A stretch of DNA of 64,000 nucleotides from an uncultured Bacillota bacterium (GCA_963930055.1 CAWVKS010000008.1:500694-564693), one strand, 5' to 3'. Positions 17,646 through 37,530 are shown, counted from the first letter of the stretch. The notes: a model not told the origin generated them from the letters alone. A program made the numbers and translations.

Positions 17646-17790
<145 letters not shown>

Positions 17791-22952: not shown

Positions 22953-25900
22953 TCAGGAGCGGACGAGGATGTCCGTCCAGTCCGCTACGTCGCACTGGCC
23001 ATGATCGTTATTGCCCACGGCCACCACCGTGCCGTCCGACTTCAGGCCTACGGTATGATTGCCCCCGGCGCTGACCGCTACGATGTCCGTCCAGTCCGCT
23101 ACGTCGCACCGGCCGTCGTAGAAGTCTTCTGTTAATTCTTTCGCCACCACCGTGCCGTCCGACTTCAGGCCTACGGTGTGAGCGTTCCCGGCTCTGACTG
23201 CTACGATGTCCGTCCAGTCCGCTACGTCGCACTGGCCGTATTCGTTATTGCCCGCGGCCACCACCGTGCCGTCCGACTTCAGGCCTACGGTATGCCCGCT
23301 CCCGGCGCTGACCGCTACGATGTCCGTCCAGTCCGCTACCTCGCACTGGCCATCACCGTTCCAGCCCACGGCCACCACCGTGCCATCCGACTTCAGGCCT
23401 ACGGTGTGAGCGTTCCCGGCGCTGACCGCTACGATGTCCGTCCAGTCCGCTACGCCGCACTGGCCGTATTCGTTATTGCCCACGGCTACCACCGTGCCGT
23501 CCGACTTCAGGCCTACGGTATGTCCGTTCCCGGCGCTGACCGCTACGATGTCCGTCCAGTCCGCTACGCCGCACCGGCCGTCATCGTTATAGCCCACGGC
23601 CACCACCGTGCCATCCGACTTCAGACCTACGGTATGATACCACCCGGCGCTGACCGCTACGATGTCCGTCCAGTCCGCTGCGTCGCACTGGCCGACTTCG
23701 TTATAGCCCACGGCCACCACCGTGCCGTCCGACTTCAGGCCTACGGTATGCCAGCTCCCGGCGCTGACCGTCTCCCGGTCTGTGACCTGCTCCCAGAGGG
23801 CGAAACTCCGCTCGCGCGCGTTGGAATAATCGCCAAGCTGGCCATACAGGATAGCCGCCGCACCCAGATCCCCCGCCGCTTCCATGGCTTCCGCCGGAGC
23901 GAAGCGTATCGCCTGCGCGCGCTCCGGGGCGTCCTCGTAGTCGCCCGCAGCTTCAAACTCCGCTGCCGCGCCATCGGCATCGCCTGCTGCCAGCAATTCC
24001 TCTGCATTGGCGTAGTGTATTGCCTGTATGCGCTTTGCCGCATCCTGATAATTTCCGGCCAAGGCAAACTCTGCAAGCGCGCCGCTATCGTCCCCCGCCG
24101 CAAGCAGCGCTTCCGCGTGAGCGTAGTGCGCCGCGAGAGCGCGCTCCGGGGCGTCCTCGTAGTTGCCCGCAGCTTCAAACTCCGCCGCCGCGCCATCGGC
24201 ATCGCCTGCCGCCAGCAATTCCTCTGCATTGGCGTAGTGTATTGCCTGTATGCGCTTTGCCGCATCCTGATAATTTCCGGCCAAGGCAAACTCTGCAAGC
24301 GCGCCGCTATCGTCCCCCGCCGCAAGCAGCGCTTCCGCGTGGGCGTAGTGGACTCCCAGCGCCCTTGCCGGGGCGTCGCTGTAATCGCCCAGCGCGGTGA
24401 AAGCAGCGAGGGCGGCATCGTATTCGCCATTGGTCAGCAGCGCTTCCGCGTGGGCGTAGTGCGACGCGAGAGCGCGCTCCGGGGCGTCCTCGTAGTTGCC
24501 CGCAGCTTCAAATTCCGCCGCCGCGCCGCTATCGTCCCCCGCCGCAAGCAGCGCTTCCGCGTGGGCATAGTGGACTCCCAGCGCCCTTGCCGGGGCGTCG
24601 CTGTAATCGCCCAGCGCGGTGAAGGCGGTTAGGGCGGCGTCGTATTCGCCATTGGACAGCAGCGCTTCCGCATGGGCATAGTGCGCCGCAAGAGCGCGCT
24701 CCGGGGCGTCCTCGTAGTTGCCCGCAGCTTCAAATTCCGCTGCCGCGCCAGCAGCATCACCTGCCGCGAGCAATTCCTCTGCCAGAGTATAGTGGTCAGA
24801 TAACATTCGCATTGCGCGATTGCTGAGTTTGATGTCCGTCCAGTCCGCTACCTCGCACTGGCCGTCACCGTTATCGCCCACGGCCACCACCGTGCCGTCC
24901 GACTTCAGGCCTACGGTATGTAAGCTCCCAGCGCTGACCGCTACGATGTCCGTCCAGTCATCTACGTCGCACTGGCCGGAACCGTTGCCACCCACGGCCA
25001 CCACCGTGCCGTCCGACTTCAGGCCTACGGTATGAGAACTCCCGGCGCTAATCGCTACGATGTCCGTCCAGTCATCTACGTCGCACTGGCCGTCACCGTT
25101 ATCGCCCACGGCCACCACCGTGCCGTCCGACTTCAGGCCTACGGTATGATAGCCCCCGGCGCTGACCGCTACGATATCCGTCCAGTCATCTACGTCGCAC
25201 TGGCCGGAATGGTTACTACCCACGGCCACCACCGTGCCGTCCGACTTCAGGCCTACGGTATGATTGTCCCCGGCGCTGACCGCTACGATGTCCGTCCAGC
25301 CCTCTACGTCGCACTGGCCGCGACCGTTATCACCCACGGCCACCACCGTGCCGTCCGGCTTCAGGCCTACGGTATGACTCCACTCGGCGCTGACCGCTAC
25401 GATGTCCGTCCAGTCCGCTACGTCGCACTGGCCGGCGTAAGTCCCGCCGTATCCGATATACTCTGTCGCCACCACCGTGCCGTCCGACTTCAGGCCTACG
25501 GTATGATAGCCCCCGGTGCTGACCGCTACGATGTCCCTCCAGTCCGCTACGTCGCACCGGCCGGAAGCGTTATCGCCCACGGCCACCACCGTGCCGTCCG
25601 ACTTCAGGCCTACGGTATGCCATCTCTCGGCGCTGACCGTCTCCCGGTCGGCGACCTGCTCCCAGAGGGCGAAACTCCGCTCGCGCGCGTTGGAATAATC
25701 ACCGCTCCGGCCATAAAGCATGGCCGCCGCAGTCAAATCGCCTTCCGCCTCTGCGGCTTCCGCGTGGGCGTAGTGCGCCGCGAGGGCGCGCTCCGGGGCG
25801 TCCTCGTAGTCGCCCATGGCCTCGAAGGCCTGCGCGGCCTGCGCGTATTCGCCGCTCGCGTAGAGGGCTTCCGCCGCCTGATAGTTTTGGGCGGGGATAT

Positions 25901-27908
25901 AGACCTGTGTGATGTACCACGCCGCGATGGCCGCGATGGCGATGAGAAGCACGACGATGATGATATTGCGCTTATGCACCCGCTCCGCGCGCTCTTCTTC
26001 CGCCGTTTCCCGCGCTTGCAGTTCCGCCGCTTTCGCCTGACACTGCTTTGCGCGCTCGGCACTGTCCTTGTAGGCGTTCAAGTTTTGAAACGCGCTGACA
26101 AGACTTACAAATGTGGCAGCTCTTTTCGCCTCCGCCTGTTTCCGGCAAAGCCCCTGATACTCCTCTTCCCGTTTCGCCTCCGCTTCCTGCGCTTTCAGCG
26201 TCTCCATGCGCTCCTGGCACTGCTGTGCGCGTTCGGCACTGTCCTTGTAGCCCCTCAGCGCCTTGAAGGAGTCGGTGAGGCTATGGTAAGTCTCTTTGTT
26301 TTTCGCCTCTGCCTGCTTCCGGCATAGCTCCTGATAGTAGGCTTCCCGATTGGCCTCCGCTTCCTTGCAGAGCGCCTCGGCCTTGCGGTCGGCTTCGTTC
26401 AGCGCCTGGGCGTAGGCCTCCCGCGCCGCTTTTTCGGCCTCGGCGTCGCGCTGGCGGGCGCTTTGCAGGGCGGCGGCCAGGGCGTCTGCACAGGCGCGGT
26501 CTTCGGCGGCGAGCTTTTCTTTGAACGCGCCGCGGGCAAAGCTGCGGGCGCGGCGCAGGTCGCGGTCGGCGTCCAACGACTGGCGCAGTTCCTCCAGCTT
26601 TTCCTGCCAGTAGCCCAGCACGGCCTGATACGGCTCCGGGAGGGGGTAGAGGACACGGATGTTTTCCTCCAGCAGATAGCCGGGCACGGCGAAGCGCGCT
26701 GCGGCGGCCTCGGCGCGCGCTGGGTCGGGCATTGCCGCCCGCGTGGGGACGCCCTTTTCCCCGCGTTGCAGGTATTTGACGCTCTCTTCCACATGCTGCG
26801 TCAGGCTTTGCGCGCCCACGCGGGCGAGGAATTTGCCGCGCCAGGCCTCGGCGCACTCGGCGTCCATATCCAGCGCGCGGTCGAAAAATTCGTTTGCCGC
26901 CTTCCATTCGCCGTCTTCCAGCGACATTTCGCCGCGCTTGAGCAGGGCGACGAGGTTGGACGCGCCCTCGCCCTGCACGACCACCGTTTCATGGGCCGGC
27001 TCCGGCTCCTTGTCCGCGTCCAGCACCTTGTTGACGCCGCGGATGAGGTCCTGCAAAAAGCCGATCTTGCTCATATCGTAGGCCTGCAATACGGAGAGCT
27101 GTTCCGGCAGGTCGTAGGGGTCCATATCGCGGTAGCAGGGCAGGAGCAGCTTCTTTTTGTCCTTTTTCATCAGGGCGAGGAAGCGGCTCCACTCGTTTTT
27201 CACCCACACGGCGTTGAAGTTGCGCGCGCTGGTGCCCACCACGATCATCACCTTGGTAGAGTTGAGTGCGGCGAAGATGTACGGCTCGTACTGCTGGCCG
27301 GCCTTGTCCTCCAGCGTGATGCGCGCGAAGAAGACGCGGCGGCCCTGCTCCGTGAGTTGATAGTAAATCTCCTGCGCCATGATGGAATCGCGCGTGCGCT
27401 GGCCGTTTTCGTCCGTCTCCTTGTAGCAGATGAAAACGTCGAAGGGCGCTTCGGTCTGCGAGGTGGCGAGGATGCCGCGCTGCACCTCGGCGATCTTCTC
27501 CGCGTCCTGCCGGTACTGGGCGCGGGTGACGCCATCGGAATGCTGGAGGGCGGCGAGGTAGTCCACGTCCTCGAGGAAGCTATCGAAGCTGGCGCGGTGG
27601 CAGGTGGGAAGATAAGCGTGGGTGGCGGGGTCTTCCACGTATTCGATGCCGAAGCGGCAGAGGGCGCAGCACCAGTGCGCCTCGGCGTCGGTTTCGTCTT
27701 CTTCGACGATGCGCTCGTACACGGCCAGCGCCTTGTCAAATTCGCCGATGCGGCGGAAGTAGTTGCCGCGGTTGAAGGCGTTGGCGCGCTGTTCGTCGTC
27801 TATTTTGGGGAAGGTCATGGTGGAGCCGCAACTGTCGCAGGTGCCGTAGGTGCGGTCCGGCGAAAGCTCTATGTCGCCGCCGCACATTTTGCATTTGATG
27901 ATGGTCAT
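22953..27908 (-). CDS. Zn-ribbon / TIR-domain giant protein (1651 aa), paralog 1: coiled-coil, single TM helix, TPR-like repeats and two RCC1-like beta-propeller arrays
   Basis: N-terminus CKMCGG…CDSCGS zinc ribbon. TIR core FDVFICYKETDENGQRTRDSIMAQEIYYQLTEQGRRVFFARITLED…MIVVGTS…WVKNEWSRF. Duplicated coiled-coil. TM RNIIIVVLLIAIAAIAAWYITQVYI. About 16 units HTVGLKSDGTVVAVG-N--GQCDV--W-DIVAVSAG (RCC1_2-like) in two blocks, separated by about 12 TPR-like 34-37-aa units. AGGAGG RBS. Confidence 0.85.
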   Translation of the reverse strand: MTIIKCKMCGGDIELSPDRTYGTCDSCGSTMTFPKIDDEQRANAFNRGNYFRRIGEFDKALAVYERIVEEDETDAEAHWCCALCRFGIEYVEDPATHAYLPTCHRASFDSFLEDVDYLAALQHSDGVTRAQYRQDAEKIAEVQRGILATSQTEAPFDVFICYKETDENGQRTRDSIMAQEIYYQLTEQGRRVFFARITLEDKAGQQYEPYIFAALNSTKVMIVVGTSARNFNAVWVKNEWSRFLALMKKDKKKLLLPCYRDMDPYDLPEQLSVLQAYDMSKIGFLQDLIRGVNKVLDADKEPEPAHETVVVQGEGASNLVALLKRGEMSLEDGEWKAANEFFDRALDMDAECAEAWRGKFLARVGAQSLTQHVEESVKYLQRGEKGVPTRAAMPDPARAEAAAARFAVPGYLLEENIRVLYPLPEPYQAVLGYWQEKLEELRQSLDADRDLRRARSFARGAFKEKLAAEDRACADALAAALQSARQRDAEAEKAAREAYAQALNEADRKAEALCKEAEANREAYYQELCRKQAEAKNKETYHSLTDSFKALRGYKDSAERAQQCQERMETLKAQEAEAKREEEYQGLCRKQAEAKRAATFVSLVSAFQNLNAYKDSAERAKQCQAKAAELQARETAEEERAERVHKRNIIIVVLLIAIAAIAAWYITQVYIPAQNYQAAEALYASGEYAQAAQAFEAMGDYEDAPERALAAHYAHAEAAEAEGDLTAAAMLYGRSGDYSNARERSFALWEQVADRETVSAERWHTVGLKSDGTVVAVGDNASGRCDVADWRDIVAVSTGGYHTVGLKSDGTVVATEYIGYGGTYAGQCDVADWTDIVAVSAEWSHTVGLKPDGTVVAVGDNGRGQCDVEGWTDIVAVSAGDNHTVGLKSDGTVVAVGSNHSGQCDVDDWTDIVAVSAGGYHTVGLKSDGTVVAVGDNGDGQCDVDDWTDIVAISAGSSHTVGLKSDGTVVAVGGNGSGQCDVDDWTDIVAVSAGSLHTVGLKSDGTVVAVGDNGDGQCEVADWTDIKLSNRAMRMLSDHYTLAEELLAAGDAAGAAAEFEAAGNYEDAPERALAAHYAHAEALLSNGEYDAALTAFTALGDYSDAPARALGVHYAHAEALLAAGDDSGAAAEFEAAGNYEDAPERALASHYAHAEALLTNGEYDAALAAFTALGDYSDAPARALGVHYAHAEALLAAGDDSGALAEFALAGNYQDAAKRIQAIHYANAEELLAAGDADGAAAEFEAAGNYEDAPERALAAHYAHAEALLAAGDDSGALAEFALAGNYQDAAKRIQAIHYANAEELLAAGDADGAAAEFEAAGDYEDAPERAQAIRFAPAEAMEAAGDLGAAAILYGQLGDYSNARERSFALWEQVTDRETVSAGSWHTVGLKSDGTVVAVGYNEVGQCDAADWTDIVAVSAGWYHTVGLKSDGTVVAVGYNDDGRCGVADWTDIVAVSAGNGHTVGLKSDGTVVAVGNNEYGQCGVADWTDIVAVSAGNAHTVGLKSDGTVVAVGWNGDGQCEVADWTDIVAVSAGSGHTVGLKSDGTVVAAGNNEYGQCDVADWTDIVAVRAGNAHTVGLKSDGTVVAKELTEDFYDGRCDVADWTDIVAVSAGGNHTVGLKSDGTVVAVGNNDHGQCDVADWTDILVRS

Positions 27909-27926
27909 GGGCGCTCCTCCTGCGTA

Positions 27927-30401
27927 TCAGCGTTTGGTAAGGTCGGTCTTTTCCGAGCGGACGGCGGCGAGGCGCTCCTCGATCTCGCGGCGGCGTTTGC
28001 CGGTGAAGAGACCGCGGAGGGAGGCAAGCTCGTTTTGCAGGCGCGTTTCCTCGGCGGCGAGGGCGGCGAGGCGCTGCTGGCGGGCTTGTTCGGCAAGGCG
28101 GGCTTGTTCGGCGGCGCGACGGGCTTCCTCCTCGGCGCGACGGCGGGCTTCCTCCTCGGCGCGACGAGATTCTTCTTCGCGGCGGCGGGCTTCCTCCTCG
28201 GCGCGACGGGCTTCTTCGGCACGTTCTGATTCCAACATGCTAAAATTGTTAAAGAGTTTCCAGCCTTTTACGTCGCACTGGCCGCCATCGTCACCGCCCA
28301 CGGCCACCACCGTGCCGTCCGACTTCAGGCCTACGGTATGATGGTTCCCAGCGCTGACCGCTACAATGTCCGTCCAGTCCACTACGCCGCACTGGCCGTA
28401 TTTGTTATTGCCCACGGCCACCACCGTGCCGTCCGACTTCAGACCTACGGTATGATAGTCCCCGGCGCTGACCGCTACGATGTCCCTCCAGTCCGCTACG
28501 TCACACTGGACGTAATCGTTATTGCCCACGGCCACCACCGTGCCGTCCGACTTCAGGCCTACGGTATGATACATCCCGGCGCTGACCGCTACGATGTCCG
28601 TCCAGTCCGCTGCGTCGCACTGGCCGTATTTGTTCCGGCCCACGGCCACCACCGTGCCGTCCGACTTCAAGCCTACGGTATGACTCCACCCGGCGCTGAC
28701 CGCTACGATGTCCGTCCAGTCCGCTACGTCGCACTGGCCGTAATGGTTACCGCCCACGGCTACCACCGTGCCGTCCGACTTCAGGCCTACGGTATGATAG
28801 TCCCCGGCGCTGACCGCTACGATGTCCGTCCAGTCCGCTACGTCGCACTGGCCGTATTTGTTCCGGCCCACGGCCACCACCGTGCCGTCCGACTTCAAGC
28901 CTACGGTATGACTCCACCCGGCGCTGACCGCTACGATGTCCCTCCAGTCCGCTACGCTGCACTGGCCGTCATCGTTCCAGCCCACGGCCACCACCGTGCC
29001 GTCCGACTTCAGGCCTACGGTATGATGGTTCCCAGCGCTGACCAACGCCCTCGCGGGGCTTATCTTCTCGTGGACTTCTTTCACTTTCTGAATGTGTTTT
29101 TCGCGCTCAATGCGTTCACGTTCACGTTCGCGTTCACGCCGCGCTTCTTCCTCGGCAATGCGCTTCTTCTGCTCCATGTCCATACATTTCTGCACGTCTT
29201 CCAGCCAATTCAGCAAGTCCCCCTGCGCGAATTGCCGCGCGCGCTCAAAAGCCTTGTCCGGCGCATGGCGCAGCGAAATAAGCTCCTCGCGGTATTCTTC
29301 CCGCGAATGCGCCTTCGCTTTGCCCATGGCGACGCCCAGATAGGCCTCGGCCTTTTGCGGGTCGATATTCAGCGCCTGCTCGAAGAAATCGTTGGCCTTT
29401 TGCCATTCGCCATCTTCCAGCGCCATGTTGCCGCGCGTGACCAGCGTGTCCGCCGTGCCGCCGCCCGCCGCCTGCACGATGACCGGCTGCGCCGCCTGTA
29501 CCGCGCCTTTGCCCAGCAGCTTTTCCACGCCGCGCACCAAATCCTGCACCGCCCCCAGCTTGCCCATGTCCTGCCCCTGCAGGTGGGCAAATTCCTTCGG
29601 CATGTCGTAGGCGTCCACGCCCTTGTAGCAGGGAATCAGGTGCTTCTTCTGCCCCGAGGCGATGAGCGCCAAAAAGCGGCTCCATTCGTTCTTTACCCAC
29701 ACGGCGTTGAAGTATTCATAGTCCGTGCCGAATACGAGCATCACCTTGGCGCTGTTCAGCGCCGCGAAGATGTACGGCTCGTATTCCGTGCCCAATTTGT
29801 CCTCCAGCGTGATGCGCGAGAAGAAAACGCGATAGCCCTTCTCCGTCAGGGCGTCGTACACCTCCTGCGCCATCACGCTATCCGGCGTGCGCTCGCCGTT
29901 TTCGTCGGTTTCCTTGTAGCAGATGAAGATGTCGTAGGGCTGTTCCTTGCCCGACAGTTCCACGATGCGGCGACGGATGTCCTCAATGGCCTTGGCTTCC
30001 TCGCGGTACACCTTGCGCGAAACGGCGTCGGCGTTCTCCTGCGCCTGTTCAAAGTCCGGGTCCTCCAGGATGCTCTCGAAGGACGAGCGGTGGCAGGTGG
30101 GTATCTTTTTGCCGGTGGCCGGGTCGTCCACGTATTCGATGCCGTAACGACAGAGCACGAGGCCCCAGTAGGCCTCCGCCTCGGTGGGAAACTCGGCGAC
30201 GATGCTTTCGTACACCGAAGCCGCCTTGTCGAATTCGCAGGCCGCGCGCAGGCGGTTGGCCCGCGCGAACAGCGTCAGCTTCTTTTCGTTGTCCGCCGTG
30301 GGCACCGTCTGCCGCGTGCCGCAGTATTCGCACTCCGCCACGGTCATGCCCGCTTCGATATTCAGGTCGCCCCCGCACATTTTGCATTTGATGATGGCCA
30401 T
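27927..30401 (-). CDS. Zn-ribbon / TIR-domain protein (824 aa), paralog 2: TIR + about 7 RCC1-like repeats + C-terminal Arg/Glu coiled-coil, no TM helix
   Basis: First about 290 aa are near-identical to the 33935-37303 product (zinc ribbon, TPR, TIR: YDIFICYKETDENGERTPDSVMAQEVYDALTEKGYRVFFSRITLED…). Then ERERERE, RCC1-like blades, and an EEARRAEEEARR coiled-coil tail. GGGAAGGGGA RBS. Confidence 0.85.
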   Translation of the reverse strand: MAIIKCKMCGGDLNIEAGMTVAECEYCGTRQTVPTADNEKKLTLFARANRLRAACEFDKAASVYESIVAEFPTEAEAYWGLVLCRYGIEYVDDPATGKKIPTCHRSSFESILEDPDFEQAQENADAVSRKVYREEAKAIEDIRRRIVELSGKEQPYDIFICYKETDENGERTPDSVMAQEVYDALTEKGYRVFFSRITLEDKLGTEYEPYIFAALNSAKVMLVFGTDYEYFNAVWVKNEWSRFLALIASGQKKHLIPCYKGVDAYDMPKEFAHLQGQDMGKLGAVQDLVRGVEKLLGKGAVQAAQPVIVQAAGGGTADTLVTRGNMALEDGEWQKANDFFEQALNIDPQKAEAYLGVAMGKAKAHSREEYREELISLRHAPDKAFERARQFAQGDLLNWLEDVQKCMDMEQKKRIAEEEARRERERERERIEREKHIQKVKEVHEKISPARALVSAGNHHTVGLKSDGTVVAVGWNDDGQCSVADWRDIVAVSAGWSHTVGLKSDGTVVAVGRNKYGQCDVADWTDIVAVSAGDYHTVGLKSDGTVVAVGGNHYGQCDVADWTDIVAVSAGWSHTVGLKSDGTVVAVGRNKYGQCDAADWTDIVAVSAGMYHTVGLKSDGTVVAVGNNDYVQCDVADWRDIVAVSAGDYHTVGLKSDGTVVAVGNNKYGQCGVVDWTDIVAVSAGNHHTVGLKSDGTVVAVGGDDGGQCDVKGWKLFNNFSMLESERAEEARRAEEEARRREEESRRAEEEARRRAEEEARRAAEQARLAEQARQQRLAALAAEETRLQNELASLRGLFTGKRRREIEERLAAVRSEKTDLTKR

Positions 30402-30422
30402 ATGTATCCCCTTCCCAATTTT

Positions 30423-31112
30423 TTACTTGTTCAGTTTGCAGAGCCGGTTTCTTTCCGCGAGCAGGGCGGCGGTTTTGCGGCAGAGTTCGAGCACGCCGTC
30501 GCCATCGCCATCGGTGAGGGCGCGCTCCATGCTGTCCATGCAGGCGCGCAGGTCGGCTTCCAGCGGCGCGGTGGCGGCGTTGCTGACGGGGTCGCTGAAG
30601 CGGAATTCATCGGCGAGCTTTTTCAGCTGCGCGCACACCGCCTCGCCCTGCGCCTGGCCCGCCAGCGCCCCGGCGCGGGACTGCAATTCGCGCATGGCGG
30701 CGACGTCCTTTTGCAGATGGACGTCCTGACGGCGAATCTCATCGCGGATGGCGGAGGCGGCCATGCAGCCGATGGCCGCCAGCACGAAGATGACCGCTTC
30801 CACCACCAGCGCCGCCCAGAGGGGAATCCAAACGCTCAGCGCCATGCACAGCAGGCCGACGACGGCCTGCGCCAGCAGATAGACGAGTGCCAGCTGGGCG
30901 ATGGGGAAGCCATAGAGGCTATCGCGCGCCCCGCCCTTGGGGGTGAAGGCGTAAAGCGACAGAGGCAATTGCGCGACGATGGCCGCGCTGGTAAAGGCGT
31001 AGGCCAGCCAGAAGACAGGCGTGCGCACGAAGGGAATGGCAAAAGCGATGACATTAAAGAGCGCCAGCAGCAGCACGACGGTCGCGGCGACGCGCGCGAT
31101 GTTCTTTTTCAT
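30423..31112 (-). CDS. Small integral membrane protein (4 predicted TM helices + C-terminal coiled-coil)
   Basis: Hydrophobic segments (VAATVVLLLALFNVIAFAIPF; VFWLAYAFTSAAIVAQLPL; LALVYLLAQAVVGLLCMALSV; LWAALVVEAVIFVLAAIGC) followed by a helical soluble tail. AGAGGGAGG RBS. Confidence 0.6.
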   Translation of the reverse strand: MKKNIARVAATVVLLLALFNVIAFAIPFVRTPVFWLAYAFTSAAIVAQLPLSLYAFTPKGGARDSLYGFPIAQLALVYLLAQAVVGLLCMALSVWIPLWAALVVEAVIFVLAAIGCMAASAIRDEIRRQDVHLQKDVAAMRELQSRAGALAGQAQGEAVCAQLKKLADEFRFSDPVSNAATAPLEADLRACMDSMERALTDGDGDGVLELCRKTAALLAERNRLCKLNK

Positions 31113-31115
31113 GGT

Positions 31116-32885
31116 TTAACCCTCCCTCTTTTTGCCGCAGTTGGGGCAGAAGTTCGAGACGATTCCCTTTTGGCCACAGTCCGGGCAAGTCCAGCCCGTA
31201 TCCGGCGCGGGGCGCTTGTGGCCGCAGTTGGGGCAGAAATTCGATGTGATGCCCTTCTGGCCGCACTCCGGGCACGTCCAGCCCATATCCGGCGCGGGAC
31301 GCTTGTGGCCGCAGTTCGGGCAGAAGTTCGAGGCGATGCCCTTCTGGCCGCACTCCGGGCAATCCCAGCCATTCGGGGCGATGGCCCCGCCCACGGCCCT
31401 GCCCATCTGCGCGGCAGCATCCATGACGGGGTTGAGCGCGTCCTTGGTCATGCCGACCACGCTGCCCATGGCCCCGAGGGTGACGCCAAGTCCGGCGAGG
31501 TCGCCAAGGCCGCCGACTGCGCCGCCGCCATTGCCGGTGATGCCGTTTTGCATGGCCTCCAGACCCACCTGACGGGCGGTTTCCTGCTGGTAGGTATAGC
31601 CCTTCATGCGCATTTCCTCGGCTTCGGCGGCGGCCTTCATGCGGTAGGCCTCGGCTTCGGCCTGTTTCTGTATCTTCAGGGCTTCGGCCTCGCCCTGCGC
31701 GCCGATGATCTTCATCTGCGCGGCGGTTTGCGCCTCCACGGCCTTGCGGCGGGCGGCGGCTTCGGCCTCGCGGCGACGGATTTCCTCCTGGCGCACGCCG
31801 AGATACTGTTCGGCAAACTGTTCCTTCATGCGGCGGAAGTTGGGGTCGTCGTCCGGCGTGACCACGCGGCTGACGAAAAACTCCGCCATTTCCAGACCGT
31901 ATTCGGCCAGGCGGGGGTTGATCTTTTCGCGCAGAGCCTCGCTCAGCTCCATCAGCCGCTCGTCGATTTCCAGCACGCTGATGCCCTTTTCGCGGATGGC
32001 CGCAGCCAGATAGCTCTTCACCTGCGTCATCACCATGGCGCGGAAAAAACCCTTGCCGCCGCCGAGCAAATCCTCCTGCCGCAGGGTGGAAGTGGTGCCC
32101 ACCACGCGCAAAAGCAGCTTGCGGGCGTTGACCACGCGAATGTTGAATTCGCCGCTGGCGCCCAGTTCCACGTGCAGGCCGCTGGTGGGGTCAAAGAGGC
32201 GCACCTTGCTGTCCGTGCCCCACTTCACGCCCATCTGCGTGGCCATATTGATGAAGTAGACCTCGGAATGGAAGGTGCCCTCGGTGTCCGTGGGCAGCTT
32301 ATAGAGCTTTTCCAGCATGGGCAGCTGCTGCGTTTCCAGCGTGTAGCGGCCCGCGCCGAAGGCGTCCAGCGCCTGCCCGTCGCGGAAGAAGATGGCTTCC
32401 TGGCTTTCGTGGACGATGAGCTGGGAGCCGAGGTTGAAGTCCTCGATGGGGTGTTTCCAGACCAGCGTGTCGCCGTCGCCCTCGTATTTGATGATGCTGG
32501 CCAGGCCGTCCTGACGGATTTGTTCGGCCTTGAGGCGCTCGACGACGTCGTTTTCAAAATCGCACACCGGGCAGACATAGCGCTCCGCCCCGCGCGCCAC
32601 GCGCAGGCGCACGCCGCACTGACGGCAGGAAAACTCCACCGCCTTGGTCTGTTCGGCCATGGTGTTGATGGCCTCGCCGCAGACGGGGCAGCGCGCGTCC
32701 GCCCCCTTGGACTGGTCGAAAACCACATTGTTGCCGCAATGGGGGCAGGTGCGGCTGGCCATTTTGTCCGTGCGGACGTTGATGGTATAGCCGCAGGCGC
32801 AGTCGATCTTCTTGCGGGCGAAAAAGCCCGTCTTTGCTTCCACGTATTTCCCGCAGCGCGGGCATTCGATGACGAATTTGGCCAT
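31116..32885 (-). CDS. SPFH/band-7 (Band_7_1, YdjI-like) protein with six zinc-ribbon modules
   Basis: Three N-terminal CxxC…CxxC ribbons, a central SPFH-like core, a coiled-coil (…REAEAAARRKAVEAQ…) and three tandem C-terminal repeats GW(D/T)CP(E/D)CGQKGI.SNFCPNCG(H/K)KR. Start at MAKFV with a GAGGGA RBS; the track's start is MRENTMAKF at 32900. Confidence 0.8.
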   Translation of the reverse strand: MAKFVIECPRCGKYVEAKTGFFARKKIDCACGYTINVRTDKMASRTCPHCGNNVVFDQSKGADARCPVCGEAINTMAEQTKAVEFSCRQCGVRLRVARGAERYVCPVCDFENDVVERLKAEQIRQDGLASIIKYEGDGDTLVWKHPIEDFNLGSQLIVHESQEAIFFRDGQALDAFGAGRYTLETQQLPMLEKLYKLPTDTEGTFHSEVYFINMATQMGVKWGTDSKVRLFDPTSGLHVELGASGEFNIRVVNARKLLLRVVGTTSTLRQEDLLGGGKGFFRAMVMTQVKSYLAAAIREKGISVLEIDERLMELSEALREKINPRLAEYGLEMAEFFVSRVVTPDDDPNFRRMKEQFAEQYLGVRQEEIRRREAEAAARRKAVEAQTAAQMKIIGAQGEAEALKIQKQAEAEAYRMKAAAEAEEMRMKGYTYQQETARQVGLEAMQNGITGNGGGAVGGLGDLAGLGVTLGAMGSVVGMTKDALNPVMDAAAQMGRAVGGAIAPNGWDCPECGQKGIASNFCPNCGHKRPAPDMGWTCPECGQKGITSNFCPNCGHKRPAPDTGWTCPDCGQKGIVSNFCPNCGKKREG

Positions 32886-32896
32886 GGTGTTTTCCC

Positions 32897-33889
32897 TCAC
32901 TTCTCTGTTGTGTTGCGGTCGGTCTGCATATCCTCGATGGCGGTTTGGTAGAAGGCGCGGAAGAAGGCGGATCCGTCATAGGCCTTGCCAGCGCAACTCA
33001 ACGTGTCCTCGTCAAAGCCCAGGCCGCGCACGTCCGCGCCGTAGACCTTCAGAAGTTCGTGTTTGACGGTTTCCTGAGCGCATTTCGGCGCATAAAACAC
33101 CGTCTTTCCATGGTGGGCGCGCTCGCGCTTTTTGCGGTTCAGCAGCCACCAGAAATCCCATTCGGAAAAATCGCTGCCGAAGCCGAGTATGTAGACGTCG
33201 CCCATGATGAAAGCGTCCAGCCAGCTTTCCAGCAGCGGCGGCTGGCCGTTTTGCTGGCGCTCGCGCTGCTCGTCGGCGCGCGCGGAGAGGTGCTTGTCGT
33301 AGTTTTGGAGCAGCTTGCCGTAGAGATAATGGCCGAGGATGACGCTCTCGGGCTTGCGCGCCTCGCCGTGGATGTGCCAAATCTTCTGTTCGCGCCCTTC
33401 GCGAACGACGGCGTTGTAGGTGTGCAGAAGGTATTTCGTCTCCGCGTGCTGGCTCGTGTGGCGCATGGCCGCCTTGAAGGGGCATTTTTTATGGAGGCAC
33501 TTCCCCTGCGGGCAGAGGCGCGCCTCGAGGGCGGGGTCGGCGGCGCATTCCAGCTCATAGCTGTAATTTGTGGTCAGTATATGGTCAAAACCCATGTTCC
33601 AAACGGGTTCCAGCGCCGCGCGCAGGGCGGAAAGCCCCCGCAGGCAGCAGAGCGCGGCGCGGTTTTCGCGTATGGCCGCATCCACCGCGTCTTTTGTGCC
33701 CAGCACCACTTGCAGCGGGAAGGGAATCCCCGCAACCTGCGGGTTTTCATGGGAAATGCTGTCGTTCTTCCAGAAGTTTTTGATGAGCCCTCCCCAGCTT
33801 TCGCCGCCAAAGGCGCGGTTCAGGCCGTTGCCCAGCAGCAGAACTTGGGGATAGACGTCCTGCGGGCCTTGCGTGCTGTTGTATTCCAT
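32897..33889 (-). CDS. SIR2-like domain protein (SIR2_2/DUF4020 type, standalone, about 330 aa)
   Basis: …VLLLGNGLNRAFGG… Rossmann-like start. Catalytic-type motifs ILTTNYSYE (TTNY Asn) and IWHIHGE (His). …ILGFGSDFSEWDFWWLL… typical of the bacterial SIR2_2 family. No SLOG/Macro domain follows. GGAAAGG RBS before ATG 33889. Confidence 0.8.
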   Translation of the reverse strand: MEYNSTQGPQDVYPQVLLLGNGLNRAFGGESWGGLIKNFWKNDSISHENPQVAGIPFPLQVVLGTKDAVDAAIRENRAALCCLRGLSALRAALEPVWNMGFDHILTTNYSYELECAADPALEARLCPQGKCLHKKCPFKAAMRHTSQHAETKYLLHTYNAVVREGREQKIWHIHGEARKPESVILGHYLYGKLLQNYDKHLSARADEQRERQQNGQPPLLESWLDAFIMGDVYILGFGSDFSEWDFWWLLNRKKRERAHHGKTVFYAPKCAQETVKHELLKVYGADVRGLGFDEDTLSCAGKAYDGSAFFRAFYQTAIEDMQTDRNTTEK

Positions 33890-33934
33890 GTTTGGCCAAC
33901 CTTTCCGGCGCAATGCGCGCCTGTGCATTGGGGG

Positions 33935-36900
33935 TTACTGGCGGACGAGGATGTCGGACCAGGTGGAGACGCCATAGTTTCTGCCCACAGCCACTACCGT
34001 GCCGTCGGATTTCAGGCCCACTGTATGCCAGAATCCAGCGCTGACCGCCACGATGTCTGTCCAGTCCTCTACGTCGCACTCGCCATCCTGGTTGCTGCCC
34101 ACAGCCACCACCGTGCCGTCCGACTTCAGGCCCACTGTATACCAGTTTCCAGCGCTGACCGCCACGATGTCTGTCCAACCCTCTACGTCGCACTGGCCAT
34201 GGTAATTATCGCCCACAGCCACCACCGTGCCGTCCGACTTCAGGCCCACGGTATGTCTGTTCCCAACGCTGACCGCCACGATGTCTATCCAGCCCTCTAC
34301 GTCGCACTGGCCATAGCCATTATCGCCCACAGCTACCACCGTGCCGTCCGACTTCAGGCCCACGGTATGTTCGTATCCAGCGCTGACCGCCACGATGTCT
34401 GTCCAATCCTCTACGTCGCACTGGCCATCGTAATCCTCGCTGTCTCCGGTATACTCTGTCGCCACCACCGTGCCATCTGACTTTAGGCCCACTGTATGCC
34501 GGTCTCCAGTGCTGACTGCCACGATGTCTATCCAGCCCTCTACGTCGCACTGGCCATGGTAAAACTTGCTGTCTGCGTTATACTCTGTCGCCACCACCGT
34601 GCCGTCCGACTTCAAGCCCACGGTATAGCTCATAAAAACGCCACCCCCAGCGCTGACCGCCACGATGTCTGTCCAGCCCTCTACGTCGCACTCGCCATCG
34701 TAATTATAGCCCACAGCCACCACCGTGCCGTCCGACTTCAGGCCCACGGTATGATATCCCCCAGTGCTGACCGTCTCCCTGTCGGCGATTTGTTCCCAGA
34801 TGGCGAAACTCCGTTCCCGCGCGCCGGGATAATCGCCAAGCTGGCCGTACAGGATGGCCGCCGCGCCCAGATTTCCTTCTGCCTCCATGGCTTCCGCCGG
34901 TGCGAAGCGAATTGCCTGCGCGCGTTCCAATGCGTCTTCATAGTCGCCTGCGGCCTCGAATGCCGTTGCTGCGCCGTCGGTGTCGCTCGCCGCAAGCAGC
35001 GCTTCCGCCTTGGCGTAGTGCGTTGCCAGTATGCGCTCCGACGCATCCTCATAGCTGTCTGCGGCCTCAAATTCCGCAATCGCTCCGTCGTAATCCCCCG
35101 CCGCCAGCAGCGCTTCCGCCTGTGCGTAGTGCGTTACCGGTATGCGTTCCGACGCATCCTCATAGCTGCCTGCGGCCTCAAATTCCGCAATCGCTCCGTC
35201 ATAGTCCCCTGCCGCCAACAGCTCTTCCGCCTTGGCGTAGTGTACGCCCGGTATGCGCTGCGGGGCGTCGTTGTAGTTCCCCAGCGCTGCAAATTCCGCC
35301 AGCGCGCCGTCATAGTCCCCCGCCGTTTGTAGGGCGTCCGCGTAGGCATAACGCGCCTGGAGCATGCGGGATGTGGCGTCTTTGTATCCGCCTATGGCTT
35401 CAAACGCCTGTGCCGCCTCCTCATATTGGCCGCTCTCGTAGAGTTCTTCCGCTGCCTGATAATTCTGGGAGGGGATAAATATTTGCGTAATGTACCACAA
35501 CGCTACCGCCGCGATGGCGATTAGGAGCACGGCGATGATGATATTGCGCTTGCGCTTCCTTGCCTGCTCCTGCGCATGCTGCAGCGCCACCTGCTCCTGC
35601 TTATCTCTCAAATCACGACATTGCTTTGCGCGCTCGGCGCTGTCTTTATAGTCTTTCAGGCGTCTAAAGTCACTGCTGAGGTCTGCAAATTCGTATGCGG
35701 TTTTCGCCTCCGCCTGCTTCTTGCAAAGCAGCTGGTAGTCCTCTTCCCGGCGCGCTTCAGCTTGGTGGAAAAGTTCCTCCGCCTTGCGGTCGCACTCGTC
35801 CAGCGCCTGAGCGTAGGCCTTGCGCGCCGCTTCCTTTGCCTGCGCGTCGCGGCGCTCCGCCTGTTGCACGCACTCGTTCCAGCGGCTCTCAAAGGCCCGT
35901 TCCCCCGATTCCAGCTGCTCATTGAAAGGCCCGGCGGCGAAATGGCGCGCTTTTTTCATGTCGCTGTCGTTGGCGAATTTGGCCCGGTTTTGATTGCTTG
36001 TCGACAGCCAGTAGTCCGCCACTGAAGTATACGGCTTGGGCGGCGCGTATTGGGCGCGGATTTCGCTTTCCGTCAGGTAATTCTCGATGGCAAAGCGCTT
36101 GACCGCCGCGTCGGCGCGGGATTTGTCCGCCTGCGCGGCTTCTTTGGACACGCTCTTTTCGGCCCGTTTGGCGCGCTCGATCTGCTCCGCCGCGTACTGG
36201 GCGATGCCACTTGTCTGCACGCGGGCGAGAAATTTGCCCAAATAGGCCTCGGCGCATTCGGCGTTCATGTCCAGCACGCGGTCGAAGAACTCGTCCGCCG
36301 CCTTCCAGTTGCCGTCGCTCAGCGCCATGTTGCCGCGCTTGAGCAGGGCGTCGCCGGAAACGCCGCCCGCCGCCTGGACGACAACCTGCTGCGCGCTCTG
36401 CGCCGCGCCCTTGCCCAGCAGCTTTTCCACGCCGCGCACCAGATCCTGCACAGCGCCCAGCTTGCCCATGTCCTGCCCTTGCAGGTGGGTAAACTCCTTC
36501 GGCATGTCATAAGCGTCCACGCCCTTGTAGCAGGGAATCAGGTGCTTCTTCTGCCCCGAGGCGATGAGCGCGAGGAAGCGGCTCCATTCGTTCTTTACCC
36601 ACACGGCGTTGAAGTATTCATAGTCCGTGCCGAACACCAGCATCACCTTGGCGCTGTTCAGCGCCGCGAAGATGTACGGCTCGTATTCCGTGCCCAACTT
36701 GTCCTCCAGCGTGATGCGTGAGAAGAAGACCCGATAGCCCTTCTCCGTCAGGGCGTCGTACACCTCCTGCGCCATGACGCTGTCCGGCGTGCGCTCGCCG
36801 TTCTCGTCCGTCTCCTTGTAGCAGATGAATATGTCATAGGGCTGTTCTTTCCCCGACAGTTCCACGATGCGGCGGCGGATGTCCTCGATGGCCTTCGCTT

Positions 36901-37303
36901 CCTCGCGGTACACCTTGCGCGAAACGGCGTCGGCGTTCTCCTGAGCCTGTTCAAAGTCCGGGTCCTCCAGGATGCTCTCGAAGGACGAGCGGTGGCAGGT
37001 GGGTATCTTTTTGCCGGTGGCCGGGTCGTCCACGTATTCGATGCCGTAGCGGCAGAGGACGAGGCCCCAATATGCCTCCGCTTCGGTGGGGAACTCGGCG
37101 ACGATGCTTTCGTACACCGCGGCCGCCTTGTCGAATTCGCAGGCCGCGCGCAGGCGGTTGGCGCGGGCAAACAGCGTCAGTTTCTTCTCATTGTCCGCCG
37201 TGGGCACCGTCTGCCGCGTGCCGCAGTATTCGCACTCCGCCACGGTCATGCCCGCCTCGATGTTCAGGTCGCCTCCGCACATCTTGCACTTGATGATGGC
37301 CAT
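33935..37303 (-). CDS. Zn-ribbon / TIR-domain giant protein (1122 aa), paralog 3: coiled-coil, single TM helix, TPR-like repeats and an RCC1-like propeller
   Basis: Same head as paralog 2. TM RNIIIAVLLIAIAAVALWYITQIFI. About 10 TPR-like units, then about 9 RCC1-like blades. GGGAGGAAGAG RBS. Confidence 0.85.
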   Translation of the reverse strand: MAIIKCKMCGGDLNIEAGMTVAECEYCGTRQTVPTADNEKKLTLFARANRLRAACEFDKAAAVYESIVAEFPTEAEAYWGLVLCRYGIEYVDDPATGKKIPTCHRSSFESILEDPDFEQAQENADAVSRKVYREEAKAIEDIRRRIVELSGKEQPYDIFICYKETDENGERTPDSVMAQEVYDALTEKGYRVFFSRITLEDKLGTEYEPYIFAALNSAKVMLVFGTDYEYFNAVWVKNEWSRFLALIASGQKKHLIPCYKGVDAYDMPKEFTHLQGQDMGKLGAVQDLVRGVEKLLGKGAAQSAQQVVVQAAGGVSGDALLKRGNMALSDGNWKAADEFFDRVLDMNAECAEAYLGKFLARVQTSGIAQYAAEQIERAKRAEKSVSKEAAQADKSRADAAVKRFAIENYLTESEIRAQYAPPKPYTSVADYWLSTSNQNRAKFANDSDMKKARHFAAGPFNEQLESGERAFESRWNECVQQAERRDAQAKEAARKAYAQALDECDRKAEELFHQAEARREEDYQLLCKKQAEAKTAYEFADLSSDFRRLKDYKDSAERAKQCRDLRDKQEQVALQHAQEQARKRKRNIIIAVLLIAIAAVALWYITQIFIPSQNYQAAEELYESGQYEEAAQAFEAIGGYKDATSRMLQARYAYADALQTAGDYDGALAEFAALGNYNDAPQRIPGVHYAKAEELLAAGDYDGAIAEFEAAGSYEDASERIPVTHYAQAEALLAAGDYDGAIAEFEAADSYEDASERILATHYAKAEALLAASDTDGAATAFEAAGDYEDALERAQAIRFAPAEAMEAEGNLGAAAILYGQLGDYPGARERSFAIWEQIADRETVSTGGYHTVGLKSDGTVVAVGYNYDGECDVEGWTDIVAVSAGGGVFMSYTVGLKSDGTVVATEYNADSKFYHGQCDVEGWIDIVAVSTGDRHTVGLKSDGTVVATEYTGDSEDYDGQCDVEDWTDIVAVSAGYEHTVGLKSDGTVVAVGDNGYGQCDVEGWIDIVAVSVGNRHTVGLKSDGTVVAVGDNYHGQCDVEGWTDIVAVSAGNWYTVGLKSDGTVVAVGSNQDGECDVEDWTDIVAVSAGFWHTVGLKSDGTVVAVGRNYGVSTWSDILVRQ

Positions 37304-37305
37304 CT

Positions 37306-37530
37306 CTACTCTTCCTCCCGCTTTTGTGTGGTTTGGGGTATGTCAAGGTGTTCCAGCGCGAACTCCAATGCCAACGAGATCAACTCGTTGCGCGTCCGCC
37401 CTGTCTTCTCCGCGGCATCGTCCAGCGCCTGCAACATGTCACGCGGTATCCGCATGGACACTACCGTGGACGCGGCCGTGTACTTGCGGGGCGTTATCTG
37501 CAATTTGGGAATGTTTTTCCTTTCCAACAT
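37306..37530 (-). CDS. Ribbon-helix-helix (CopG/Arc-like) DNA-binding protein, first gene of the operon
   Basis: …VVSMRIPRDMLQALDDAAEKTGRTRNELISLALEFALEHL… RHH fold signature. AAGGA RBS before ATG 37530. Its stop lies 2 nt before the start of the downstream TIR gene. Confidence 0.6.
   Translation of the reverse strand: MLERKNIPKLQITPRKYTAASTVVSMRIPRDMLQALDDAAEKTGRTRNELISLALEFALEHLDIPQTTQKREEE

Follow-up and report, generated by a model that had tools for sequence, protein, structure and literature searches.

A seven-gene TIR, SIR2 and SPFH operon on a tRNA-Thr island of an uncultured Bacillota bacterium: a candidate antiphage defence system

Introduction

Among the described bacterial defence systems, Thoeris unites a TIR protein, ThsB, with the SIR2-SLOG protein ThsA, and types II–XI have been added to this first type. 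In the Thoeris effector, which is activated by an NAD-derived signal made by the TIR protein, the domain that binds the signal (SLOG in ThsA, Macro in type II, and others in types III–XI) is fused to a killing domain. The lactococcal abortive-infection protein AbiH is predicted to be sirtuin-like, and a two-gene antiphage operon of Bacillus cereus, BcTir/BcTpr, is described as combining a TIR and a TPR protein. In most metazoans, the gene of FAM118B (SIRanc), a defence-type SIR2 protein, adjoins that of the TIR adaptor TIRAP, and FAM118B acts in the signalling of Toll-like receptors (TLRs).

To our knowledge, the bacterial defences based on TIR and SIR2 that have been described detect infection from within the cell. 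Here, we describe an operon from a 64,000-nt stretch of DNA of an uncultured Bacillota bacterium (GCA_963930055.1, CAWVKS010000008.1:500694-564693; hereafter, the window). In it, TIR domains are coupled to binding domains that evolve fast and are predicted to be extracellular, and to a putative SPFH membrane scaffold.

Results

Organization of the operon

Examination of the window showed seven tightly spaced ORFs on the minus strand at 22953–37530, with intergenic gaps of −4 to +21 nt, all where the initial annotation had placed them. The products, designated G1 to G7, are in order a ribbon-helix-helix (RHH) protein, a Zn-ribbon/TPR/TIR/RCC1 protein, a SIR2 protein, an SPFH protein, a four-transmembrane (4-TM) protein, and two further TIR/RCC1 proteins. 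The TIR_2, SIR2_2, Band_7_1, RCC1_2 and RHH_1 domains assigned by that annotation were reproduced with Pfam; detection of the TIR and SIR2 domains by profile searches had been set beforehand as a test of it.

G1 (37306–37530, minus strand) was taken in its 74-aa form, with the end at 37530. It is a putative regulator of the operon (Pfam RHH_1, 4.2e-05), and its matches in NCBIfam were weak and of the BrnA/RelB-like antitoxin type. A consensus scan found a promoter-like site, TTGACT-17-TACACT (37550–37578, minus strand), approximately 20 nt 5′ of G1; since promoter-like sites in total did not exceed the shuffled expectation, it is regarded as a candidate only. A plus-strand ORF at 28338–32951 (1537 aa) was rejected as a gene, being a codon-aligned shadow of G4–G6.

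The operon lies inside an island of approximately 21 kb, whose two ends are marked by direct repeats of the 3′ end of tRNA-Thr. The left repeat, attL (17672–17785, plus strand), comprises the 3′ 49 nt of tRNA-Thr(GGT) and approximately 65 nt downstream, with the tRNA gene at 17646–17721 (ARAGORN, Rfam), and attR (38677–38792, plus strand) closes the island. The two share an exact 25-mer, for which 0 occurrences are expected by chance. A tyrosine integrase is encoded at 17893–19377 on the minus strand (Pfam Phage_integrase, 4e-17; Phage_int_M; Phage_int_SAM_3). The island location proposed initially stands; its description as lying between an integrase and a RelE/ParE module was incomplete, as the operon is enclosed by the tRNA-Thr repeats. 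The toxin gene itself is real (37732–37980, minus strand, just upstream of the operon; phrog_1213 RelE-like toxin, 3e-14), with a Pfam ParE_toxin score of 20.5 bits that is below the cut-off of 23. A hairpin with a T-run (37670–37700) follows it ahead of G1. The toxin gene was co-linear with the operon in three related loci (L002, L003 and L009).

TIR proteins

Three genes of the operon, all on the minus strand, encode TIR proteins: G2 (33935–37303, 1122 aa; Pfam TIR_2 2.9e-11, RCC1_2 2.2e-45), G6 (27927–30401, 824 aa; TIR_2 2.4e-11, RCC1_2 6.3e-64) and G7 (22953–27908, 1651 aa; TIR_2 5.8e-10, RCC1_2 8.7e-111 in 13 stretches). The domains listed for them in the initial annotation were all found; their order had to be corrected to Zn-ribbon, TPR, TIR, TPR/coiled coil, TM helix, 37-aa TPR-like repeats and RCC1. 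The TIR domain is encoded at 36464–36832 in G2, 29559–29930 in G6 and 27066–27437 in G7, and the TM helix, located by hydropathy, at 35486–35542 in G2 and 25908–25964 in G7. G6 has no TM helix or other hydrophobic window and is soluble, with a charged coiled coil. According to blade counts, the RCC1 propellers are seven-bladed, with one in G2 (33938–34786), one in G6 (28257–29054) and two in G7 (24831–25646 and 22956–23777; 14 blades). The 114-nt RCC1 units of G7 are 88–89% alike, and the blade units show homogenisation of their nucleotide sequences.

The N-terminal 300 aa of G2 and G6 are 99.3% identical, with 94% identity between the nucleotide sequences and a dN/dS of 0.015. More than 3100 proteins matched the TIR head, and in the best 120 of them the heads were 75–98% identical. 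Sequence comparison thus points to a TIR head that is under strong constraint. The putative catalytic residue, Glu239, is present in G2 (codon 36587–36589), G6 (29685–29687) and G7 (27192–27194) and was invariant in 14 diverse homologues. The surrounding motif WVKNEW was likewise invariant, and its Glu aligned with that of the WCLMEL motif in the TIR domains of flax L6/L7. Single-sequence searches of the PDB with the TIR head gave no match, and a profile of the head gave as its best, weak match (8.6e-4) the TLR15/TLR2 TIR chain, in which the Glu aligned to Glu239 is also present. Receptor TIR domains of this kind are not known as NADases, so the shared Glu is no proof of catalysis. The alignments place a conserved Glu in the W-x-x-x-E helix of the TIR domain; NADase activity requires this residue but does not follow from it.

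Most TIR proteins of this cluster type have one TM helix. In 36 of the 37 TM-bearing proteins, the N-terminal flank of the helix carried more Lys and Arg residues than the C-terminal flank (mean 6.1 versus 1.9), and these proteins are predicted to have the TIR domain inside the cell and the RCC1 or DUF6273 domain outside. The RCC1 arrays of G2 and G7 come after the TM helix, which predicts an extracellular location for them, a point absent from the initial annotation. This would involve export of ectodomains of 500–1000 aa with no cleavable signal peptide, which was counted against the proposed function. In the comparison with the closest relative (L009), the heads and the SIR2, SPFH and 4-TM proteins were 96–100% identical, whereas the ectodomains were just 69–76% identical and unequal in length. 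In other loci, RCC1 was swapped for DUF6273, a C-type-lectin-like binding domain. By their sequences, the ectodomains are fast-evolving and sensor-like. Related loci carried one to five TIR paralogues per operon, some of them pseudogenised, and soluble and tail-anchored TIR paralogues lacking an ectodomain were common among the relatives.

SIR2 protein

G3 (32897–33889, minus strand) is a 330-aa SIR2_2/AbiH-like protein (Pfam SIR2_2 3.2e-06; 27.7 bits, cut-off 24.5). An exact-sequence look-up of a 343-aa form gave no record, and the exact 330-aa product was present in public gene calls; the start was therefore moved to Met14 (33889), which is most likely the correct one. The protein has the motifs GNG (residues 20–22), TTNYSYE (Asn108) and WHIHGE (His174), and the GNG, TTN(Y/F) and HIHGE motifs were invariant in 31 homologues. 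The AlphaFold2 (AF2) model (pTM 0.81) consists of a single SIR2 fold, all of which aligns to the SIR2 domains in DSR2 and in ThsA. Its best PDB folds were the defence NADases DSR2, HAM-SIR2/KomC and ThsA (Foldseek probability 1.00, TM-score 0.45–0.57). Single-sequence searches of the PDB gave no match to G3, and its profile matched ThsA weakly (E = 0.098). The features of defence-type SIR2 proteins, namely a Rossmann GxG, catalytic Asn and His motifs and the SIR2 fold, are all found in G3. Neither Pfam nor the AF2 model revealed a SLOG, Macro or other nucleotide-sensing domain.

The score of G3 against PF14253 (AbiH) was 16.9 bits, below the cut-off of 30.9, and no PADLOC AbiH model matched. 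Since homologues such as P0117 carry an unmarked PF14253 match, G3 is placed at the edge of the AbiH family, which its own family borders.

SPFH and 4-TM proteins

G4 (31116–32900, minus strand; 594 aa) is an SPFH protein (Pfam Band_7_1 3.8e-39; 134.9 bits, cut-off 24) with DZR and Zn_ribbon_3 also above their cut-offs. It consists of three N-terminal zinc ribbons (32562–32864), the SPFH domain (31758–32441), a Gly-rich linker and three C-terminal zinc ribbons (31137–31361). All six ribbons are of the CxxC...CxxC form, and there is no TM helix. Translation of G4 may start five codons downstream at an ATG, as in the 589-aa homologues. The protein was 55–71% identical in distant loci. Sets of SPFH, Zn-ribbon and membrane proteins are otherwise tied to envelope stress (PspA), and this was counted against an immune reading of the operon.

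G5 (30423–31112, minus strand; 229 aa) belongs to an unannotated family. It has four hydrophobic TM helices (30747–31100) and a cytoplasmic helical bundle (30426–30746), as assigned from hydropathy and an AF2 model (pLDDT 88.6), and matched nothing in Pfam, NCBIfam, PADLOC or PHROG. Its family comprises 3735 clusters at 50% identity (E≤1e-3), and in every context examined the gene adjoins SPFH and TIR genes. Together with the more than 3100 TIR-head matches, this shows that the gene set is common.

Distribution and neighbourhood of related loci

Conservation of the neighbourhood, also set beforehand as a test of the initial annotation, was found in many unrelated contigs from two phyla. The gene order RHH-TIR-SIR2-SPFH-4TM-TIR was found repeatedly in Clostridia metagenomes and also in a MAG of Flexilinea (Chloroflexota); the evidence for this taxon breadth comes from metagenome contigs and from a small number of named MAGs. 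A search of genome contigs with one protein gave one locus, in “Ca. Pullichristensenella.” The carriers were mostly gut and rumen anaerobes, and the RHH gene preceded the cluster in at least 17 related loci.

Anchoring on SIR2 and requiring 3.5 kb or more on each side gave 29 loci, of which 18 contained both TIR and SPFH genes. In 10 of these 29 (approximately one third), the SIR2 homologue was solitary among unrelated genes. Large surface proteins beside solitary SIR2 genes were considered as divergent sensors and rejected, as they carry signal peptides and lack both the TIR and the Zn-ribbon head. Where the SIR2 protein was 33–47% identical to G3, its gene was mostly located between the TIR and SPFH genes with minimal spacing; in L007, L072, L082 and L045, the order differs, and SIR2 adjoins the TIR gene, not the SPFH gene. 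Three relatives anchored on the 4-TM gene (L091, L094 and L095) have TIR, SPFH and 4-TM genes and no SIR2. Judged by gene content, the TIR–SIR2 pairing is thus not central to the system; the invariant core is TIR, SPFH and 4-TM, with SIR2 as a frequent, dispensable addition.

Islands and mobilisable elements carry the cluster, which is patchy in its distribution. Integrase was the commonest flanking family in 21 loci, where Mob_Pre, NikA and AAA_25 were found as well. Carriage by phages or plasmids was rejected: relatives of G5 were absent from IMG/VR viral contigs and PLSDB plasmids, and those of the TIR head from GenBank phages. In some genomes, the cluster lies amid housekeeping genes (glnA/pyrG in Flexilinea, pfk/spoIVB in L091), and a scan of 150 flanking proteins against PADLOC gave, as a raw count, few matches, mostly to generic HTH models. 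Both observations were counted against an immune reading.

Discussion

Proposed function

We propose that the seven genes form one multi-gene, membrane-associated conflict system carried as island cargo, most likely an abortive-infection-type antiphage defence targeting NAD+; we put the likelihood of this at about even. The proposal starts from what the analysis gave directly: the gene content and its conservation as a set, the predicted topology, the conserved catalytic residues, the divergence of the sensors and the mobile carriage. As the set recurs in many gut-bacterial genomes and matches no described system, it is a strong candidate for a new kind of bacterial immunity.

The steps of sensing, scaffolding, NAD+ cleavage and phage protection, all of which we infer, might proceed as follows. 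The paralogous TIR proteins would be the sensors, with a nearly invariant cytoplasmic Zn-ribbon/TPR/TIR head and variable C-terminal ligand-binding domains, which in G2 and G7 are placed outside, past the single TM helix, and in G6 in the cytoplasm. G4, the SPFH protein rich in zinc ribbons, and the 4-TM protein G5 would build a scaffold beneath the membrane on which the TIR heads are held or gathered. When infection supplies a ligand or disturbs the envelope, the TIR domains may oligomerise, and their conserved Glu would then cleave NAD+, resulting in its depletion or in a signal. G3 would be an additional NADase effector or amplifier, switched on by protein contact and not by a SLOG- or Macro-bound nucleotide, and G1 would repress the operon. 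Because SIR2 is absent from some clusters and solitary elsewhere, its place in the mechanism is uncertain.

Alternatively, the operon could be a module for envelope stress or surface signalling and not for immunity. The SPFH/Zn-ribbon/4-TM set would then act in membrane maintenance like the YdjGHI-type PspA partners of Bacillus, and the TIR receptors would report extracellular cues (wall fragments, host glycans or neighbouring cells) through NAD+-derived signals or the NAD+ level. The PspA-linked ydj operon of B. subtilis typically combines a Band_7_1 domain, which bears a zinc ribbon at its C terminus, with two partners, one a zinc-ribbon protein and the other a membrane protein; some clusters are placed among housekeeping genes, the sensor domains are predicted to be extracellular, and strong PADLOC enrichment was not seen in the 150 flanking proteins. 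However, the operon in the window has no PspA gene. Several features fit a conflict system better than housekeeping: the patchiness and mobility of the cluster, the variation in TIR paralogues (one to five per operon, with pseudogenised copies), the fast evolution of the sensor parts, and the addition of an enzyme from the defence-type SIR2 fold group. We consider such a role in envelope stress or surface signalling unlikely.

The locus could also be composite: G3 would be an abortive-infection protein of the AbiH-like, single-gene kind that has entered a separate TIR/SPFH/4-TM system, each acting on its own. This would suit both the solitary SIR2 genes in 10 of the 29 well-flanked loci and the clusters that have none, and in a distance tree embedded and solitary SIR2 genes were interleaved; the tree, however, was poorly resolved, and SIR2 is mostly kept between the TIR and SPFH genes at minimal spacing even at 33–47% identity to G3, so separate action appears to us quite improbable. 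Cell–cell recognition or inter-bacterial conflict, in which variable ectodomains would bind molecules on the surface of other bacteria and set off an NAD+-dependent arrest of growth or cell death, as in allorecognition systems, would fit extracellular binding domains joined to an intracellular death-type domain and carriers living in dense gut communities, but is very doubtful given that the operon contains neither genes for secretion or toxin delivery nor an immunity-gene pattern and that TIR paralogues without an ectodomain, soluble or tail-anchored, are common.

If the proposed antiphage defence is correct, a membrane-receptor mode of sensing would be added to bacterial immunity, and the TIR-plus-SIR2 link of animal TLR signalling would gain a prokaryotic context. 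If it is not, a large unannotated membrane module would acquire a role in TIR/NAD+ signalling. In either case, the families of the 4-TM protein and of the Zn-ribbon/TPR/TIR head, both of them unannotated, gain a testable context. The gut and rumen anaerobes that carry them are underrepresented in the defence-system screens run in E. coli and Bacillus.

Comparison with known systems

PADLOC v2 gave no system-level match to the operon (best E values of 8e-4 to 5e-3, to unrelated or candidate models), NCBIfam 20 gave none above cut-off for its products, and the literature searched (TIR+SIR2+SPFH, TIR+RCC1, PF13421, DUF6273) does not describe the cluster, in agreement with the initial annotation. 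As in Thoeris, a TIR gene is located beside the gene of a SIR2-fold NADase, several TIR paralogues may occur per locus, and the G3 model resembles the SIR2 domain of ThsA. Unlike in Thoeris, G3 is a bare 330-aa SIR2 fold lacking SLOG, Macro or another nucleotide-sensing domain, the TIR domains are fused to Zn-ribbon/TPR heads, TM helices and large binding domains, and the SPFH and 4-TM genes are core, whereas SIR2 is optional. No ThsA model of PADLOC matched, nor did any ThsB model at E≤0.01; the NCBIfam model of Thoeris type III ThcB4 scored 19.4 bits against a cut-off of 220, and a 2025 survey of TIR signalling systems does not include these families. The earlier view that the operon is not canonical Thoeris is thus upheld.

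G3 resembles AbiH in being a stand-alone SIR2-like protein of approximately 300 aa; many members of its family are annotated as AbiH or match PF14253, and about one third of its homologues occur as single genes, but G3 itself is embedded in a multi-gene operon. It also differs from DSR2 in lacking the large sensor domain of that protein. Like the operon, the YdjG/YdjH/YdjI(L) module of B. subtilis joins an SPFH protein of the Band_7_1 type, which bears a zinc ribbon at the C terminus, to zinc-ribbon and membrane partners. However, zinc ribbons are fused to both ends of G4, the membrane partner G5 belongs to an unrelated 4-TM family with no TPM domain, and the SPFH set is linked to TIR and SIR2 genes; Pfam detected no PspA or TPM in any of the seven products. 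BcTir/BcTpr, compared by description only, likewise brings TIR and TPR elements together in phage defence, but on separate proteins.

With the topology predicted from hydropathy and the positive-inside rule, the TM-bearing proteins would share with animal TLRs a repeat ectodomain, one TM helix and a cytoplasmic TIR domain. The ectodomain differs, being RCC1 or DUF6273 instead of LRR, as would the orientation, predicted to be N-in/C-out with no signal peptide. We tentatively suggest, as a reading of low probability, that the operon encodes bacterial counterparts of TLRs, in which single-pass proteins would sense an outside cue such as an adsorbing phage through an RCC1 or C-type-lectin-like domain and signal to a cytoplasmic TIR domain on a raft-like SPFH scaffold with a defence-type SIR2 protein. 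Such outside-in immune sensing in bacteria would mirror the TLR/TIRAP/FAM118B arrangement of animals. The likeness to the latter, with homology seen in the TIR and SIR2 folds, may be convergent.

Gene content of the operon

The ORF listing of the window placed seven genes between 22953 and 37668, all on the minus strand and in the same direction, as the initial annotation had described, and all domains named there were reproduced by Pfam. The G1 product contains an RHH_1 domain. The TIR proteins G2, G6, and G7 carry TIR_2 at residues 158–281 in all three (E-values 5.8e-10 to 2.4e-11), together with strong RCC1_2 arrays (2.2e-45 to 8.7e-111); G3 matches SIR2_2 (27.7 bits vs. a cut-off of 24.5), and G4 combines Band_7_1 (3.8e-39) with DZR and Zn_ribbon_3. 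G5 was assigned to no family, and its four hydrophobic helices were recognized from hydropathy and an AF2 model. Inspection of the sequences revealed six CxxC...CxxC ribbons in G4 and seven RCC1 blades each in G2 and G6; G7 has two such sets of blades. According to hydropathy, a single strong TM helix is present in G2 and in G7, and G6 has none.

The start of G3 is most likely Met14 (33889), which corrects the earlier call: public gene calls include the 330-aa product but not the 343-aa form. G1 was corrected to a 74-aa form, and G4 may start five codons downstream of the called position. A 1537-aa plus-strand ORF without a Pfam match (28338–32951), antisense to G4–G6, was rejected as a shadow ORF because it is codon-aligned with these genes in one common frame with 0–1 TTA/CTA/TCA codons.

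Conservation of the gene set

The G3 family comprises more than 1000 homologs. The pattern was evident from the contexts of three family members: on metagenome contigs, the order was RHH, TIR/RCC1, SIR2, SPFH, a 230-aa protein, and then further TIR genes, and the same five core genes were found in a Flexilinea (Chloroflexota) MAG, with glnA on one side and pyrG on the other. A metagenome scan with the SIR2 alignment yielded 80 loci, which were searched with HMMs built from the window proteins; the statistics were restricted to 29 loci in which SIR2 was flanked by 3.5 kb or more on each side. Both the Zn-ribbon/TPR/TIR head (the N-terminal 300 aa of the TIR proteins) and the SPFH gene were present in 18 of these, usually accompanied by the 4-TM gene, and one locus had a partial set. 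In the remaining 10, SIR2 was solitary, with helicases, transporters, sugar kinases, and secreted surface proteins as unrelated neighbors. When the search was anchored on the 4-TM family, TIR, SPFH, and 4-TM genes occurred in every locus examined, and SIR2 was present in L089, L092, and L093 and missing from L091, L094, and L095. On this gene content, the invariant core is the TIR protein or proteins, the Zn-ribbon SPFH protein, and the 4-TM protein, with SIR2 as a frequent addition. The embedded SIR2 gene is mostly located between the TIR and SPFH genes; a distance tree of poor resolution showed solitary SIR2 genes interleaved with embedded ones.

The number of TIR paralogs per operon ranged from one to five (L089 among the loci), and in the related locus L002 the downstream TIR/RCC1 genes were split into several short ORFs (14847–15651 and 18568–20034). 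Gain and loss of the TIR paralogs appear to be rapid.

In four loci, a solitary SIR2 gene overlapped or abutted a very large secreted surface-protein gene (L042, 7120–9963; L057, 1767–4409; L088, 7249–11880; L054, 2628–5939). These proteins have signal peptides and BspA-type LRR_5, Big_2, and choline-binding repeats. The adjacency may be fortuitous or may reflect another type of partnership.

TIR proteins

The 300-aa head was unusually constrained. The heads of G2 (36404–37303) and G6 (29502–30401) shared 99.3% protein identity at only 94% DNA identity: 51 of 900 nt differed, only three of them non-synonymously, with two amino acid differences (dS 0.29, dN 0.004, dN/dS 0.015). The likeness reflects purifying selection rather than recent gene conversion. 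Head identity to G2 was 74–100% in the top 120 of the more than 3100 proteins matched; across the distant loci compared, identity was lower for SIR2 (33–47%) and the 4-TM protein (31–48%).

A single TM helix followed the head in 37 of 63 non-redundant full heads. In 36 of these 37, K/R residues were richer on the N-terminal than on the C-terminal flank of the helix (means 6.1 vs. 1.9), and this bias predicts a topology with a cytoplasmic TIR domain and an external C-terminal part for the TM-bearing proteins. Beyond the helix lies an RCC1 propeller or DUF6273, the latter replacing the RCC1 ectodomain in L013, L024, L043, L045, L049, L060, L069, L089, L091, L092, and L094. In papers on gut phages, DUF6273 is described as a C-type-lectin-like domain varied by diversity-generating retroelements in receptor-binding proteins. 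Other paralogs are soluble with cytoplasmic RCC1, as in G6, or tail-anchored, ending a few residues past the TM helix without an ectodomain (L007, 11099–12964; L008, 1736–3559; L094, 6036–8033).

Compared with the nearest relative, L009, the heads and the SIR2, SPFH, 4-TM, and RHH products were 96–100% identical, and the ectodomains were 69–76% identical and of unequal length. The coding sequence of the RCC1 blades consists of 114-nt units (22968–25639, 28269–29043, and 33983–34753) with 88–91% identity, whether compared inside one of the three genes or across them, and copies of a 222-nt TPR-like unit in G7 (23917–24350) are 98% identical. This similarity points to ongoing repeat turnover and to recent repeat expansion or gene conversion.

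Catalytic residues and predicted folds

The TIR-region profile found matches in the flax L6/L7 TIR and in the TLR15/TLR2 TIR chain. Glu239 of G2, G6, and G7, which is invariant in the WVKNEW motif, aligned with the Glu in WCLMEL of L6/L7, the position that is catalytic in plant TIR NADases. It was aligned in the TLR15/TLR2 chain as well, and to our knowledge receptor TIR domains of the TLR type are not regarded as NADases; therefore, Glu239 is compatible with TIR catalysis and is no proof of it.

In G3, the motifs GNG, TTNYSYE, and WHIHGE were invariant in 31 homologs. Its AF2 model (pLDDT 76, pTM 0.81) consisted of a single SIR2 fold with no extra ligand-binding domain, and the closest PDB folds were DSR2, HAM-SIR2/KomC, and ThsA. 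The G5 model was confident (pLDDT 88.6), with four TM helices and a predicted cytoplasmic helical bundle; its fold matches were generic, and the family is large and unannotated (3735 clusters at 50% identity, E ≤ 1e-3).

Integrative island

The last 49 nt of tRNA-Thr(GGT) and about 65 nt downstream of it form a direct repeat (17672–17785 and 38677–38792); the chance expectation of a 25-mer within it is zero. The island of approximately 21 kb contains a tyrosine integrase (Pfam), a Cro/C1-type HTH gene, a RelE-like toxin gene (phrog_1213, 3e-14), and a minus-strand gene for a 406-aa phage-family protein of unassigned function (19334–20554; phrog_2467, 7.7e-62; no Pfam match) that overlaps the integrase start. 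The G+C content is ~0.49–0.53 near the integrase, ~0.60–0.65 across the operon, and ~0.67 in the upstream chromosome. The repeat-bounded interval, its mobile gene content, and the G+C contrast thus identify the operon as cargo of the island. The toxin module also adjoins the operon in the closest relatives L009, L002, and L003.

In the segment 38677–40298, a second, decayed integrative element starts directly after attR, the repeat copy at 38677–38792. Its likeness to the start of the first island runs into an integrase remnant split by a Mutator-family (Transposase_mut) transposase gene (39069–40298), and the counterpart of this integrase is intact in L009. Prophage-like genes lie downstream (41463–51863): NlpC/P60 with PG_binding (41463–42422), a Prophage_tail endopeptidase with SH3 (45061–47427), a large serine recombinase (47532–49211), and a PG_binding and SH3 protein (50694–51863). 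Integrases and mobilization genes were abundant in the flanks of 21 loci, and specific PADLOC matches among the flanking genes of related loci were only a few. Searches of viral, phage, and plasmid collections did not recover the system.

Proposed function and comparison with known systems

The reading with the most support, to which we give about even chances, is a single membrane-associated conflict system, each functional step of which we infer. Receptor-like TIR sensors, acting in part outside and in part inside the cell, would pick up a ligand or envelope perturbation and be organized by the pair of Zn-ribbon SPFH and 4-TM proteins, and activation would lead to NAD+ cleavage by the TIR domain. 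SIR2 would be an added NADase switched on via protein contacts, and the RHH protein a regulator.

In its SPFH part, the operon is similar to the YdjI-type module of Bacillus, but PspA is missing here; an envelope-stress or surface-signaling module on the YdjGHI/PspA theme is the strongest rival, with perhaps one chance in five. G3 stands at the edge of the family of AbiH, a lactococcal protein of abortive infection that is predicted to resemble sirtuins, and the operon could be a composite, with an AbiH-like gene within an independent TIR/SPFH system; this is somewhat less likely again. A cell–cell recognition system is improbable.

No PADLOC model matched the operon proteins significantly, none of the NCBIfam models of June 2026, including that of Thoeris type III, scored above its cut-off, and a full-text literature search returned no paper combining the components. 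The text and text-form supplements of a 2025 systematic survey of TIR signaling systems do not mention SPFH, Band_7, RCC1, or PF13289. As a putative conflict system, the operon would be closest in its working to the TIR/SIR2 NADase defenses. Membership in Thoeris fails because G3 has no signal-binding effector domain and the ThsA and ThsB models were unmatched, in agreement with the earlier view that the operon is not canonical Thoeris. The predicted ectodomain–TM–TIR layout is similar to that of Toll-like receptors, and a preprint reports that the gene for FAM118B, the human defense-type SIR2 homolog, is a neighbor of TIRAP, which encodes a TIR adaptor, and that FAM118B has a role in TLR signaling; we regard this parallel as a lead rather than a finding. 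NAD-targeting TIR/SIR2 conflict systems are already known, and the new element is the putative membrane-receptor and SPFH architecture, a common and undescribed cluster through which outside-in sensing in bacterial immunity could be put to the test.
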